Of a stretch of 64,000 nucleotides of DNA, positions 34,073 through 41,200 are shown piece after piece. Below the pieces are notes generated by a model. That model did no database searches. It was not told the DNA's origin and saw only the letters and a program-made list of their open reading frames with translations. Both the position numbers and the translations under genes were made by a program. Location of the stretch: assembly GCF_048403405.1 (NCBI RefSeq), contig NZ_CP183129.1, one strand, 5' to 3'. This DNA is from Escherichia coli. Its GTDB lineage: Bacteria > Pseudomonadota > Gammaproteobacteria > Enterobacterales > Enterobacteriaceae. Every line of letters begins with the position of its first letter. Within the stretch, counting starts at the first letter, position 1.

Positions 34073-35491
34073 TCAGGCTCCTTTCCTCGCTTCTTCGTAC
34101 GCTGCCAGCGTTCGCAGCCTTGCCTCTTTGTGATCAACTATCGGTTGCGGATAATCCAGCGTCACACCTGCTTTCTGCGCCCACTTCCACGGCTCATGCA
34201 CCACTTTCCCTGGCACATCGCGCAGTTCCGGTAGCCACTGGCGGATAAACTCGCCTTCGCGGTCAAATTTCTCGCCCTGGGTTGTCGGGTTAAAAATACG
34301 AAAATACGGCGCTGCATCGGTTCCGGTTGAAGCGGCCCACTGCCAGCCACCGTTATTAGCTGCCAAATCACCATCAATCAGCTGCGACATGAAATATCGC
34401 TCGCCTTCGCGCCAGTCGATCAACAAATCTTTCACCAGAAAACTGGCTGTAATCATCCGTAGCCTGTTATGCATCCAGCCAGTGCTGTTAAGCTGACGCA
34501 TGGCAGCATCGACAATCGGGTATCCCGTTTTGCCTTCCTGCCAGACCTGTAAATGTGCGGGATTGCTCTGCCACTGCACACGATCCGTCCAGGCAATAAA
34601 CGGACAATGTTTACACAACGAGGGGTAATACGTCATCAGATGACGGTAGAACTCGCGCCAGATCAGCTCACTAAGCCAGACACTACCGGCCCCACCGTCC
34701 AGCGCCTGCGGCTGTTCCGCCAACAAGCGATGCAAACACTGGCGAGGCGATAACCCGCCCGTTGCCAGGCTGGCGGACAAACGACTGGTGCCTTCCACTG
34801 CCGGAAAATCTCGTTGTTGCTCATATTCTCCGGCACCGTTCTGGCAAAACTGGCGTAATTGCGCAATCGCCGCTTTTTCTTCCACCGGGAAATGCGCAGT
34901 ATCGAAAGGCTGACGAGGATAATTCAGCGTAATGGATGGCGCGGGATCTATCGATCCACTACTACGTACTTTTGGCGCAGCGACGCACTCCGGCATCCCT
35001 TCCCGCAGCCGTTTCAGCCAGGCGTTTTTAAATGGCGTAAAGACTTTGTACATCTCATGATTGCCAGTCATCACCGCCCCCGGCGGCAGGATCACGCTGT
35101 CGTCAAATCCTTCACACACCACGTTACGCAGCGTTCTCTCAACCTGCGCATCCCGCGCCCGCTCATTCACCTCATACTGATAGTTATAAAACAGATGGGT
35201 AACACGATTTTCCGCGCACACCTGTTTAACTATTTCGACGCTGGCAGCAAAGTCATCCACTTCATGAAACAGCAAAGGAATGCCTTTTTCCGCCAGCGCG
35301 ATTTGTAGCCTATTCAGTTGAGCATTGATAAGTTCAGCCTGACGCGGCGACACATTATGCGCCGCCCACTGGCGTGGTGTAGCGATATACAACGCCAGCA
35401 CGCGTGCAGACGAATAGCGGCAAGCGGCAGCCAGCGCGAGATTATCGTGCTGACGTAAATCCTGGCGAAACCAGACCAGATGGGTAGTCAT
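34073..35491 (-). CDS. phr: deoxyribodipyrimidine photolyase
   Basis: 472 aa; MTTHLVWFRQDLRQHDNLALAAA. Confidence 0.95.
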   Translation of the reverse strand: MTTHLVWFRQDLRQHDNLALAAACRYSSARVLALYIATPRQWAAHNVSPRQAELINAQLNRLQIALAEKGIPLLFHEVDDFAASVEIVKQVCAENRVTHLFYNYQYEVNERARDAQVERTLRNVVCEGFDDSVILPPGAVMTGNHEMYKVFTPFKNAWLKRLREGMPECVAAPKVRSSGSIDPAPSITLNYPRQPFDTAHFPVEEKAAIAQLRQFCQNGAGEYEQQRDFPAVEGTSRLSASLATGGLSPRQCLHRLLAEQPQALDGGAGSVWLSELIWREFYRHLMTYYPSLCKHCPFIAWTDRVQWQSNPAHLQVWQEGKTGYPIVDAAMRQLNSTGWMHNRLRMITASFLVKDLLIDWREGERYFMSQLIDGDLAANNGGWQWAASTGTDAAPYFRIFNPTTQGEKFDREGEFIRQWLPELRDVPGKVVHEPWKWAQKAGVTLDYPQPIVDHKEARLRTLAAYEEARKGA

Positions 35492-35997
35492 AAAACTCCT
35501 GAATGGCGCAAGTTAATCACATGCGGCCAAAGTTCGAAATAACGCTGCCCTGAAAGCCAGGCGTCAGGATAAAGCGCCATATAGTGTTTGATACGCATCA
35601 GCGGCGCAAGAAGCGGTTGCTCGCCACGGCGATAACTGTCGATAAGCGCCGCCAGCTGCTGGCGTTCTGTGGAATCAATATGCGGGCGAAAATACCCCTG
35701 AACGTGCATCAAAACGTTGGTGTGATCGCGCGGGTTGGCGGGATGAGAAAGCAAAACAATTACGCGTTGACGGTACTGGCTGTAAAAATCATCCAGATTT
35801 TGCCACTGGTGAATATCAGCCACAAACGGGCCAAGTTTGCGGTATTCCGGCTGGGAATGCGCCAGAAAGACGAGTTTATAGCGGCTGTGATAATCGTTGA
35901 GTGCCCCGCGCGTTAAGCCATGTTCTTTCAGTCGATATAGCTCATAAATCGCGAAGATGCGGATTAGGGTGCTTTCATCAAATCGTTGCTGATTCAT
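35488..35997 (-). CDS. ybgA: DUF1722-family protein
   Basis: 169 aa; stop overlaps the phr start (operon). Confidence 0.85.
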   Translation of the reverse strand: MNQQRFDESTLIRIFAIYELYRLKEHGLTRGALNDYHSRYKLVFLAHSQPEYRKLGPFVADIHQWQNLDDFYSQYRQRVIVLLSHPANPRDHTNVLMHVQGYFRPHIDSTERQQLAALIDSYRRGEQPLLAPLMRIKHYMALYPDAWLSGQRYFELWPHVINLRHSGVL

Positions 35998-36057
35998 TAC
36001 TGCTCCTGAGATATTAACAGGAGTAAGTGTAGACGTTGGGAAATGATGTTTGTGAAG

Positions 36058-36906
36058 TTAATCCTGTTGTAGCAGGACAAGATTACGAAAGCGCGCTCCC
36101 CGCAAGGACTGACGCCAGATAGTTTCTGTCCATGGCTGCCCTTTCCATTCAAACGTGAAATCAATAAGTTCATCAGGGACACCGCAAACAATATGAAGAC
36201 GGATTTCTTCTCTGCCGTGACTCTTTTCACTCATTGCGAAACTGTCATGCTCTGGATTATTTAATTCTTTCAGTGGGAATTTTTCCTCAAAGGCTTTATT
36301 AAGCCGTCCCTGATTTCCTTTTACAGCGAATAAATAATCACCGCCCTGTTTTTGTATCTTCTCTGCGATATCTTTCTGGCAACCCATCGCATCAGTTGTG
36401 ATAATTTTTCCTTTAATATCCAACATGTTAAGAAGTTCAGGGATAGCTGTGATCTCATTGGATTTCTCATCCGTCCTGATCTGTCCGATGACCAGACTGT
36501 GCATTGTTGAGAACGCACTAATGACATGAATCGCTCCCCTGCGGCGACTCTTGTCATAAGAATGCCGGAGCGTTTTTCCATCAATTGCAATAACGTCTTT
36601 ATCATCTGAAGAATGGCAGTCACGCATCCAGTTAATAAAGCACTCGTGAAATTTTGCAGGACTGATACAGGATACAACTCTGGCAATGGTATCGTGAACA
36701 GGAATACCATTTTCAAAATCACCATATTGCTTCAAAAAATCGAGATGTGTTTCCCCAAAATCCTCTATATCTTCCCAGCCTTCTGCACCAGAAATAACGG
36801 CACAAATAGTCAACAGTAGAATATCCGACAATTTATGTTCCACTTTCCAGGCTTGTCTGTAATCGGGGATAATAGAAATATGTTCCATCAATTTTTTAAG
36901 TTCCAT
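36058..36906 (-). mobile_element. ybfD: H-repeat-associated (ISAs1-family) transposase gene, 3'-truncated remnant
   Basis: 282 aa ORF with N-terminus [51 protein letters not shown] typical of H-rpt proteins; homology ends after ...FTFEWKG, then an unrelated short tail (full-length proteins are about 378 aa as recalled). Confidence 0.8.
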
Positions 36907-37013
36907 TTTGTTCTCCTTAATTATGTAAAGAGTATTTGATCATGTATACGCAATAAAAAACAGCTTCAGGTAATGAGGAATATCTCAATTTTTAAACATA
37001 AAATGCGAATTAC

Positions 37014-37593
37014 TTAGTACAAAAAGTGTACTTCTGATGATCTTTCCCTGTCCTTGGCACCATCATTTTTTGACGCTTCAAAAATACTACTACAAGTGAG
37101 TTTAGAAAACTCTTTTCCAGATAATTCTCCAGGTTGTAATCCTCCGCCGCCAAAAATCCTACTCCCAGGATTTCCATACCTATTTAGAGCATATGAATAG
37201 CAATTATTTACGGCAAGATAATACGCATCTGAATTTAGTTCTCGATTGAATACTGGAGCAGGTTTATCAATTAAGCCCAGCGGATCAATAGAATAGGTTG
37301 GATGTATGGAAGCATATACATACTGATTCCACCCGCCTTCCAGCCCAATCGGTTCCTGAGTGATATACCGCCCCTGCAGCGGGTCATAATAGCGGTGGCG
37401 GTTGTAATACAGGCCGGACTCCTCATCATACTGCTGCCCCGGCAGACGGATAAGCTGCTGCAGGTGCTGCGGGTTCTCTTCAGTCAGCAGGTTGCCCCAT
37501 TCATCATATTCTGCGCACCATTCTGTTGCCCCGTCAGGGCTGATAAGCGTCAGCGGCAGGCCGCGATAGTCGCAGTGGTAGAGGTGGATTATT
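37014..37593 (-). pseudogene. orphan rhs core-end plus alternative C-terminal toxin (CT) fragment, no start codon
   Basis: Minus-strand translation gives ...[12 protein letters not shown]...[46 protein letters not shown] then a unique tail ending ...SSEVHFLY, stop at 37014-37016; 37340-37600 is a near-identical DNA repeat of 38690-38950 inside the main rhs gene. Confidence 0.75.
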
Positions 37594-37623
37594 CGCAGTG
37601 GTAGAGGTGGATTATTCGCAGTG
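37571..37623. repeat. 23-bp tandem direct repeat (2 copies plus a partial third) at the 5' edge of the orphan rhs fragment
   Basis: CGCAGTGGTAGAGGTGGATTATT at 37571-37593 and 37594-37616, then CGCAGTG. Confidence 0.9.
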
Positions 37624-37706
37624 ATCTATATGCCAACGTCATCTTATTTTTCATCTACTCCAACGAGTAGACAAGTTTTTTATTAAACCATTTATACCTT
37701 TTACGA

Positions 37707-38210
37707 TTAAATTTTCTTATGTAATAGAGGTGAATAATCTTCCCAAAAATCCATACAAGCTTTACTTGCATAAAAGAATCCAGCGTCTGATTCATAAGAC
37801 ATAAACTGTGCAATAATAGATAGTTGTATATCTGAAAAATTAAAAACAAAATTCAAAAAATCATCGTGATCCCGATACTCAGGACATAAATATTGTTGAA
37901 TAAAATCGGATTCAAAAACCCAAAAATCATTCTTATTAAACAACGAGGCATAAATATACAGAGGGATGTAATAGCAGAATACTTTCTCAGGGAGGAATGT
38001 AATTCCTAACTCTAAAGCATAAGAGTCATCCTTTATTTTAAAATTGTTGGCTATTTCATTCCATTGTTTCTTTTGGAAAAAATTATATACAATATCCAGT
38101 TCCTCCAGCCCTGTAATATCATTTGAAATATGAGGTAATGGCTGGCATGGGAAATGAATCATAAGTTCATCATAGACTGCACTCTCGTTAGAGAAAATTA
38201 TTTTTTTCAT
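37707..38210 (-). CDS. candidate Rhs immunity protein (RhsI-like), cognate to the main Rhs toxin tip
   Basis: 167 aa from [16 protein letters not shown]; its ATG overlaps the rhs stop (ATGA at 38207-38210); low-GC, no signal peptide; position directly 3' of the toxin gene. Confidence 0.6.
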
Positions 38211-41200
38211 TTTATTAAGCCACTGCAATCAGCTGCTGTTTTATATGCTTTATTCTCTTCTTCCATATGGGCCTTATCTCCACCACCAAAGCACTGATTA
38301 TTAATCTGCTTTCTGACCGAAGCGCACGCCAAATTTATCTCGTACCGTCTCAATATTTCTTTTCTCAGCATCTGAGGAGCGCAAGCTCTAGACTGGTTAC
38401 ATAATCTGTTTTTTTCATTTTGTAAGTCACTCAGGTTCTGGGGACTACAGTTACCACCAGGATTTACACCTGACTTATGTTCATCTGTTAATTTGTCGGC
38501 TTCTGGATTAACTTTACGGCCATATTGATCTCTGCGTTGTTGCCCACTTTGGATAACACCACCTGATGAAAATAAACCGCAACTCATCAGTGCTACAACA
38601 CTAAGAATTAACGGATTTAACCCTTGTGGGTCTATCTCTGAGATCGGATTTAACGGATACTGATAAAAATTCCATCCCCCCTTAAGCCCAATCGGATCCT
38701 GAGTGATATACCGCCCCTGCAGCGGGTCATAATAGCGGTGGCGGTTGTAATACAGGCCGGACTCCTCATCATACTGCTGACCCGGCAGGCGGATGAGCTG
38801 CTGCAGCTGATGCGGGTTCTCTTCATTCAGCAGGTTGCCCCATTCATCGTATTCTGCGTACCACGCTGTTGTCCCTTCCGTGCTGACAAGCGCCAGCGGC
38901 AGGCCGCGATGGTCGCAGTGGTACAGGTGGATTTTTCGCGCCGGCGTGTACACCGGGTCCATCTGGTTTTGCATCTGCTCCACCGTCAGGCCGCACGATG
39001 CCAGCCAGCGGCGGCTTTCCTCGCTCACCCGGTCAGTAAGGATTTCACTTTCCAGCCGGTCGAGCATCTGCACCAGCACCGGCGGGAACACCACTCTGCC
39101 ACCGTCTTCGCCGCCGGACTGCTGAAGGGCATCCGCCAGGCTGCGGCGCTGCGTTTTCGCCAGCTCACCGGTGGCGGTTTCAACTCTGATGAGTGGCGTG
39201 AAGCTCCCCGGCTGATAAACCGTCTGGATGCGGGTTCTGTCGTTCTGTATTGTGGTCAGCCGGTCGCCGTCCCAGCCGTACCAGGTCACTTCCGGTTTCC
39301 GTGACAGCGACATCCAGCCCGTCAGGTCCCGTTCACGCCGCCATACCCGTTTTGCCACCCTGCGGCCCAGCGGGTCGTAAAGATAGCGACTTTCGACCAG
39401 CGGCTCTGCATATTGTGTCCGCGTGTAGTGCACCAGCCGGTGCCGGCTGTCGTAATGATACCGGTGAGTCCGCTCATCATCCGTGCGGATAACCCCTTCC
39501 GGGATGAGGTCGGTTTTCTCTGTCAGCCTGCCGTGACGGTCATACCGGTAAAGATAGTGCGCGTCACGGGCGATACGGTTATCCGGCCACATGCTGAGGG
39601 TGCTGTCCGGGTGCAGCTCCGGGTCGGGCAGGCGGTTGCCTGCCGGGTCCGTGGCATACGGGATGCGGATATCCAGATTCGCTGCGGTGGTGTGGACGCC
39701 GGTCAGCCTGCCGGTGTCGCTGTAGCTGTAACTCCGGGTCTGGCGCGGGCTGCTGATGCGGATGAGTTCGCCGTTGTCGTTCCAGGTGTAATCGCGGTCA
39801 TACTGCAGGCTGTTCAGGTGCTGGCTCTGTAACTGCCCGGCAGAGGTGTAAGCGGTGGTGAGTTCATAACGGCCGAAGCTGCGCAGCGTTTCCCGGTGCA
39901 GGCGGTCGCGGGTGAAATCCACCAGCGGTGTGTCGCCGAGTTTCATGCCTGACAGCCAGCCGCTGCCGTAGGTCAGCCATTCCACGGCGGGCAGGCTGTC
40001 CGGTATACAGCGGTTCGCCAGTCCCTGCGCGTTGTACGCATGTCTGGTTTCATGCTGCCAGAGCAGTGCTTCCGTCTGCGGGTGATGCACCGTCTGGCGC
40101 TCACCGGTCAGGCGGCCTTTCTCATCATACCCGTAATGCACCGTCACCCGGTGGCCTTCGCTGAGATGGCTGATGCCTGTCAGCCAGCCGCGTTCGTCAT
40201 ACTGCCACTGCTCTGCAGGTTCACCCTTCACGGTGCGGTGAGTGAGGCGGTCTGCTTCGTCATAGTGCCAGTGGGTGACCAGCCCCTCATCCTCGCTGCG
40301 GATAAGTTTACCGGTCAGGTCGTGGTGATAACGCTGTGTGCGGCCGTCAAAGCCGGTTTCCTGTATCAGCCGGTCAAGTACATCGTAACGGAAGGTGGTG
40401 TGGCTGCCGTTTTCACTGGTCAGGCGGATGACCCGCCCGGCAGCATCGTATTCCATACTGCGCGTCAGACCGCCCTGCGTGGTACGAACGGGCTTTCCCC
40501 ACGCATCGTACTGTGTCCCGTTTCTGCTGCCGTCCGGGGCAATGACGGCGGTCAGGTCACCGGCGGCGTTGTATTCATACCGCGTTTCATGGCCCTGCGT
40601 GTCTTTCACCGCAATTAACTGTCCACGGCTGTCGTATGCGCGGTACTGACTCAGCCCTTCCTCGCGGTGCACCGCCGTCACCTGACCAAAACGGTCATGG
40701 TCATAACGGGTTACATAACCGGAACAGTCAGTGACGGTCAGCAACTGACCGTAACGGCTCCATGTCATGGTTTTCCGGCTGCCGGTGGCATCTTCCGTTG
40801 CGCAGGGTAAGTCACTGTGTGGATTATCATAACGGTAGCGGGTGATATCGCCGTTGTGTGCGGTTTCCTGAATCAGACGGCCGGATTCATCATATTTGCG
40901 GCGCAACTCCAGCCCGTCAGTCCCGGTGGCTGACGTTAACTGGTTGTGGTGGTTATAGTAAAATGCCGATGCCCTGCCATCCGGTGTGGTGATGCGCGTG
41001 ATGAGTCCCGTCACCACATCCGGGCTGTACTCAGTCGTCCGGCCTGCGGCATCCGTCTGTGCCTTAAGCCCGCCCACCGCGTCAAACTGACTCTGCGTGA
41101 CGCTGCCGTCCGCGTGTTCCTTTTTCACCACCCGCTTCAGCCCGCCTTCGCCCTGCGTGTGCAGCACTTCACGGCGGTCCAGACTGTCGGTGATGGTGAT

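Follow-up and report, generated by a model that had tools for sequence, protein, structure and literature searches.

An internally deleted H-repeat (ybfD) with both inverted repeats at the edge of an Escherichia coli RhsC locus and its likely link to the loss of an orphan immunity gene

In Escherichia coli K-12, the RhsC locus contains three tandem H-repeat (H-rpt) copies, ybfQ, ybfL, and ybfD, the last of which (b0706, H-rptC3) lies immediately upstream of ybgA-phr. The three copies are reportedly defective through deletions or interrupted reading frames, as Zhao et al. are said to have found in 1993. The intact form of the element, ISEc1 or H-rpt, represented by yhhI of RhsB and by ydcC, is 1291 bp long and encodes a transposase of 378 amino acid residues; intact copies are common in E. 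coli. Transposition of an H-rpt has never been observed (PMC3032704). MITE-like derivatives of insertion sequences offer a further comparison: these keep both termini while an internal deletion destroys the transposase.

The window analysed here is a 64,000-nt stretch of E. coli DNA (GCF_048403405.1, contig NZ_CP183129.1). It carries, in order, kdpA-kdpF-ybfA, an Rhs core protein, a small immunity-type gene, an orphan Rhs fragment, ybfD, and ybgA-phrB-dtpD, and the order kdp-ybfA-rhs-...-ybfD-ybgA-phr-dtpD is common to the window and the K-12 RhsC locus. The gene ybgA (DUF1722; 35488..35997, minus strand) is the first core gene past the Rhs/H-rpt accessory region, and the H-rpt sits at the boundary with the core genes ybgA-phr-dtpD, where the initial annotation had placed it. 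That annotation described an ORF of 282 residues at 36058..36906, belonging to the H-rpt/ISAs1 family and losing homology after ...FTFEWKG, all of which was borne out. The ORF, on the minus strand, is the ybfD orthologue, and consists of 256 transposase residues followed by a tail of 26 residues that is read out of frame. Pfam DDE_Tnp_1_assoc matches residues 8–94 over the complete profile (positions 2–88 of 88, E=3.5e-34), and DDE_Tnp_1 matches residues 102–232 over profile positions 3–139 of 200 only. The domain matches are far beyond chance. The NCBIfam model NF033564 (transpos_ISAs1; cut-off 70 bits) scores 295.1 bits, with only positions 1–229 of 314 covered. Against the 378-residue ISEc1 transposase YhhI, 250 of 256 residues are identical, and protein homology stops at residue 256.

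Segment 35400–38300 matches two RefSeq chromosomes of E. coli, from strains 4621 and MS 69-1, at 100% identity. In this identical sequence, PGAP labels 36139–36906 as ybfD, an ISAs1 family transposase with a missing C-terminus, and a pseudogene. Judged by its sequence, the feature is the orthologue of K-12 ybfD/H-rptC3, an H-repeat copy (ISEc1, ISAs1 family) linked to RhsC: it lies directly upstream of ybgA and has in common with that group the 313-bp deletion junction and the right flank. The element passes the cut-off of the ISAs1 model and has terminal inverted repeats at both ends. What it lacks of an intact member is a complete DDE_Tnp_1 domain, the full length (978 bp vs. about 1.29 kb), and a 378-residue ORF, and the copy is a member of ISAs1/ISEc1 by descent but not a functional one. 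It is a known and ordinary element, already annotated as a pseudogene. An account that joins a ybfD relic with an internal deletion, vertical decay, and H-rpt-linked loss of toxin and immunity sequences is very probably the right one for the locus as a whole.

K-12 ybfD occupies the same place as the window copy and has the same 313-bp deletion junction and right inverted repeat. The right flanks (18 + 57 nt) match at 69 of 75 positions, and the proteins are identical at 237 of 253 residues. The two copies differ as follows. The window copy has its whole left end. K-12 C3, which begins at nt 25, lacks the first 24 nt, including the left inverted repeat, because copy C2 abuts C3. Codon 254 is TAG in K-12 ybfD, giving a protein of 253 residues, and TGG in the window copy, where the ORF runs to 282. 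The left neighbour in K-12 is a ybfO-ybfC-C1-C2 array; in the window it is a truncated orphan toxin. The window copy was also examined for signs of being a recombinant, resembling K-12 C2 on the left and C3 on the right, and the pattern was not clear. Over its whole length it most resembles intact ISEc1 (96.3%), with a yhhI-type left end.

For the anatomy of the element, two intact 1291-bp ISEc1 copies (L004, which is yhhI, and L005) served as references in alignments and blastn comparisons. Each runs from CAGGGAAAGAT... to ...ATCTT(G/T)CCCTG and encodes 378 residues. The whole defective element in the window is 978 bp long (36073..37050, minus strand) and corresponds to nt 1–911 plus nt 1225–1291 of ISEc1, with identities to the intact reference of 96.6% and 97%, respectively. 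Over the retained 978 bp, the window copy and intact ISEc1 are 96–97% identical and have the same inverted repeats, left untranslated region, and start codon. The left inverted repeat, IRL, is the 11-bp sequence CAGGGAAAGAT (37040..37050, minus strand), identical to the left terminus of both intact copies. The right inverted repeat, IRR, is also 11 bp (36073..36083, plus strand; CAGGACAAGAT when read inward) and is positionally homologous to nt 1281–1291 of the intact copies. IRR and IRL match at 9 of 11 positions here, and at 10 of 11 and 11 of 11 in the intact copies. The terminal repeats escaped an automated inverted-repeat finder, as their exact common seed is shorter than 6 nt; they were established by homology to the intact copies. 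The alignment and repeat search proposed as a check in the initial annotation gave a divided answer, since both repeats are present, against its expectation, and an intact transposase frame is absent, in line with it. No other H-rpt termini were found within the window besides this IRL and one chance-level match with three mismatches. No direct repeat or target-site duplication flanks the window element, nor does either of the two intact copies examined show one, which leaves no footprint of transposition to read. The left and right junctions of the window element probably arose in separate events.

IRL adjoins the orphan Rhs fragment (37051..37601, minus strand), which PGAP calls a pseudogene and which comprises the 3′ end of an Rhs core through ...SIDPLGL and a toxin tip that is cut at IRL after 74 of its 147 residues. 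The last 11 codons and the stop of the toxin frame (to 37014) are supplied by the H-rpt. Among 5426 complete E. coli genomes, 283 carry the 5′ part of this toxin gene at an identity of at least 99%; 41 of these also carry the toxin 3′ half and an immunity gene, and the other 242 cover at least 80% of window segment 35400–38300 (242 + 41 = 283). In the H-rpt-free allele, as seen in the examples inspected (e.g., MLI114, locus L006), the same toxin is intact as the main Rhs tip and extends for 147 residues beyond DPLGL. Downstream of it come a 124-residue ORF with a signal peptide, then 284 bp, and then ybgA, with no H-rpt. The 124-residue ORF is presumably the immunity protein of the orphan toxin. 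Its signal peptide suggests a periplasmic target, which would be unusual for an Rhs tip. Pfam has no family for either the orphan toxin or its immunity protein. The toxin tip (37051–37290, minus strand; 2972–3822 in L006) has the look of a Cys/His enzyme, with the NNCYSYA segment retained in the window and the DYHWYRQD segment in the lost half.

The window and the H-rpt-free allele are identical as far as ...GGTGCCAAGGA, after which the window continues with IRL from its first base. Homology stops at 37051 and resumes 57 nt before the ybgA start. Relative to the H-rpt-free allele, about 0.8 kb is missing: 73 toxin codons, with the DYHWYRQD segment among them, the entire immunity gene, and the greater part of the spacer. 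H-rpt-linked loss is the best explanation for the missing immunity gene, since the toxin gene, when set against the intact H-rpt-free allele, breaks off exactly where IRL begins. The initial annotation had named the element as the probable cause of this loss. This is supported insofar as the gap that took the toxin 3′ half and the immunity gene starts precisely at IRL; causation we infer from the exactness of the junction.

Two routes may be envisaged. In the first, a transposase supplied in trans would make an IS-type adjacent deletion starting from IRL. In the second, another H-rpt would insert in the toxin gene, and unequal crossing-over with the resident copy would follow. The two routes cannot be distinguished on the present alleles, nor do these fix the order of events. 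Other alleles bear on both, as follows. In K71-77, which represents 337 genomes, a full-length H-rpt reaches with its right terminus exactly to nt 244 of this immunity gene, and the last 132 nt of that gene plus the spacer remain before ybgA. The locus has from 0 to 3 H-rpt copies, depending on the strain. Where there is one, in 00_3230, it joins a left context of the K-12 C1/C2 type to a right end of the C3 type, a hybrid as expected from unequal crossing-over. No intermediate was found among the loci examined, such as a toxin gene interrupted by a full-length H-rpt or an H-rpt alongside a surviving immunity gene. The H-rpt-free allele may also be the derived state and not the ancestral one.

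The alternative that survives best is that the immunity gene was lost by C-terminal displacement of the Rhs type, or by an ordinary illegitimate deletion, with the H-rpt merely adjoining the scar. Rhs loci gain and lose tips by recombination (PMC2935791), and the orphan has clearly been displaced by a new Ntox16 tip with its immunity gene upstream. Jackson et al. (2009) do not mention H-rpt or transposases. However, the breakpoint in the toxin gene is the first base of IRL, to the nucleotide, and there is a second exact terminus junction elsewhere, with IRR at nt 244 of the immunity gene in other strains. Random deletion would not be expected to be so exact, unlike the action of a transposase or recombination between H-rpts, and we consider a loss unconnected with the element to be quite unlikely.

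IRL is the exact point at which the orphan Rhs toxin was deprived of its putative catalytic half and its immunity gene, and, if the loss was indeed linked to the H-rpt, the locus offers a clean, datable case of insertion-sequence-linked erosion of orphan toxin/immunity modules. Strains of the window type would be without protection against the 41 sequenced strains that still deploy the toxin. There are three different exact H-rpt terminus junctions in or near one ancestral toxin-immunity-ybgA segment. It is tempting to go further and propose that the window copy is a substrate for ISEc1 transposase acting in trans, that H-rpt ends repeatedly trim and re-join the distal tips of RhsC, and that the copies anchor swaps of toxin/immunity cassettes on the right. 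We regard this wider proposal as unlikely; if true, it would give the H-rpt a mechanistic part in the turnover of Rhs tips, though the element has never been seen to transpose. The overall significance of the present case is small, as the element is a known, annotated pseudogene and the gain lies in annotation and history.

The spread of the ybfD copy speaks to its age. A 203-nt probe comprising the ybgA flank, the right end, and the deletion junction is contiguous in 3435 of the 5426 complete genomes. The junction is seen only next to ybgA, and there is no sign that the derivative ever moved; in this it is unlike the MITE-like deletion derivatives. The window copy and K-12 C3 differ by about 5%, while the neighbouring ybgA and phr have 94.5% and 93.9% DNA identity to K-12, respectively. 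Since the divergence of the copy equals that of ybgA and phr, the copy appears to have been inherited vertically together with its flank. The 313-bp deletion is ancient by its distribution, older than much of the diversification of E. coli. The divergence of ybgA and phr (34073–35997) from K-12 is itself above what we consider usual for E. coli core genes, which points to a deep haplotype split or to imported DNA at the edge of the RhsC locus.

Orthologues of the ORF carry several nonsense mutations: W254* in K-12 and DETEC-E601, Q18* plus W254* in 00_3230, and E65* in 266917_2. Because these stop codons are independent, the element is a decaying relic, and because they differ between orthologues, the open 282-codon frame of the window reflects a lack of hits, not conservation. 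As a separate observation, 266917_2 (L012, 2576–3553) also has the toxin stub joined to an H-rpt, with an H-rpt that differs at 26 of 768 coding nucleotides and has its own stop codon. Set beside a toxin stub with an identity of at least 99% across the 283 genomes that bear it, this divergence suggests gene conversion among H-rpt copies.

The deletion removes residues 257–360. In intact YhhI, DDE_Tnp_1 extends over residues 102–343 (profile 3–200 of 200). The IAIDGK and TTDAMG segments of the DDE domain, which start at residues 106 and 170, are kept, and the HWHVENK segment, which starts at residue 302 of the intact protein, is lost. From family knowledge of IS4-like DDE transposases, we take HWHVENK to carry the catalytic Glu, and its loss would leave the ORF product incapable of catalysing transposition. 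With a frameshifting 313-bp deletion and an incomplete DDE domain, the view of the initial annotation that this is an inactive element of the H-repeat/ISAs1 type holds. The product is predicted not to be an active transposase, and the element to be a non-autonomous relic, although its DNA is still potentially a substrate for transposition because both ends are retained.

It could be supposed that the truncated protein, a DNA-binding N-terminus with a partial DDE domain, has been domesticated, either as a trans-inhibitor of ISEc1 or as a regulator of, or promoter donor for, ybgA-phr. The 282 codons are open in this strain, the copy is fixed at a single locus in 63% of genomes, and pairwise dN/dS between copies is low (0.05–0.3). 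Against these points, at least three distinct premature stops, at codons 18, 65, and 254, interrupt the orthologues, PGAP calls the ORF a pseudogene, and H-rpt-free and C3-free alleles exist in which ybgA-phr is intact. The same low dN/dS is found between copies that are certainly dead, and most likely reflects divergence inherited from once-active lineages or exchange between copies. On the independent nonsense mutations in the orthologues, domestication was rejected; we hold it to be highly improbable.

Global alignment to the 1291-bp reference places the 313-bp deletion junction at 36138..36140 (minus strand), with reference nt 912–1224 (codons 257–360) lost. The junction reads ...GAATGGAAAGG|GC|AGCCATGG..., and the GC is a 2-nt microhomology that makes the position ambiguous by 2 nt. 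To its left, the 144-bp left untranslated region and codons 1–256 are retained. To its right is the 67-bp right end (36073..36139, minus strand), which contains IRR and the final 57 nt of the transposase gene with its stop codon. Since 313 = 3 × 104 + 1, the last 18 transposase codons are read out of frame. Of the 26 codons in the ORF tail, 22 are element nt 1225–1291 in the shifted frame, and only LQQD* comes from the flank (15 nt). The initial annotation had called this tail unrelated and the element a truncated remnant whose last third was absent before ybgA. Neither description fits, as the tail comes from the 3′ end of the element itself, read in the wrong frame, and from four codons of the flank, only the internal 313 bp are gone, and the right terminus persists 75 bp upstream of ybgA. 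A simple 3′ truncation, in which the deletion took the last third with the right end and fused the ORF to unrelated DNA before ybgA, would suit the end of protein homology at residue 256 and a tail without protein-level similarity to the transposase, but it is scarcely credible, being refuted by the alignment to intact ISEc1, in which the 67 nt past the breakpoint are 97% identical to nt 1225–1291, right inverted repeat included. The annotation should be corrected from a 3′ stump to an internally deleted copy with both inverted repeats.

Between IRR and the ybgA start codon lies a 75-bp spacer (35998..36072, minus strand), which gives the ORF its last four codons and stop. The proximal 57 nt are common to the H-rpt-free allele; the distal 18 nt are not found there. 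These 18 nt just outside IRR (36055–36072, minus strand; CTACAACAGGATTAACTT) are common to K-12 and absent from the corresponding position of the H-rpt-free allele. A scan of 35900–37300 for promoters and terminators gave no more sites than shuffled sequence, with no sigma-70-like site in the 75-bp spacer, and an Rfam scan of 35400–38300 gave no match.

Two further observations concern the neighbours of the element. The tip of the main Rhs protein (38210–38620, minus strand) matches Pfam Ntox16 (E = 5e-13), and the presumed immunity gene downstream of it (37707–38228, minus strand) has only a sub-threshold match to DUF6714. Just upstream of the ybgA start (36003–36023, minus strand), the ybgA Shine-Dalgarno sequence forms part of a 6-bp stem, CUCCUG/CAGGAG. 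The fold of this hairpin at the ribosome-binding site is no better than that of shuffled sequence (z = -1.4). The stem is kept in all three alleles, and the 9-nt loop varies, reading UUAAUAUCU, UAAACCGCU, and UAAACCGUU.
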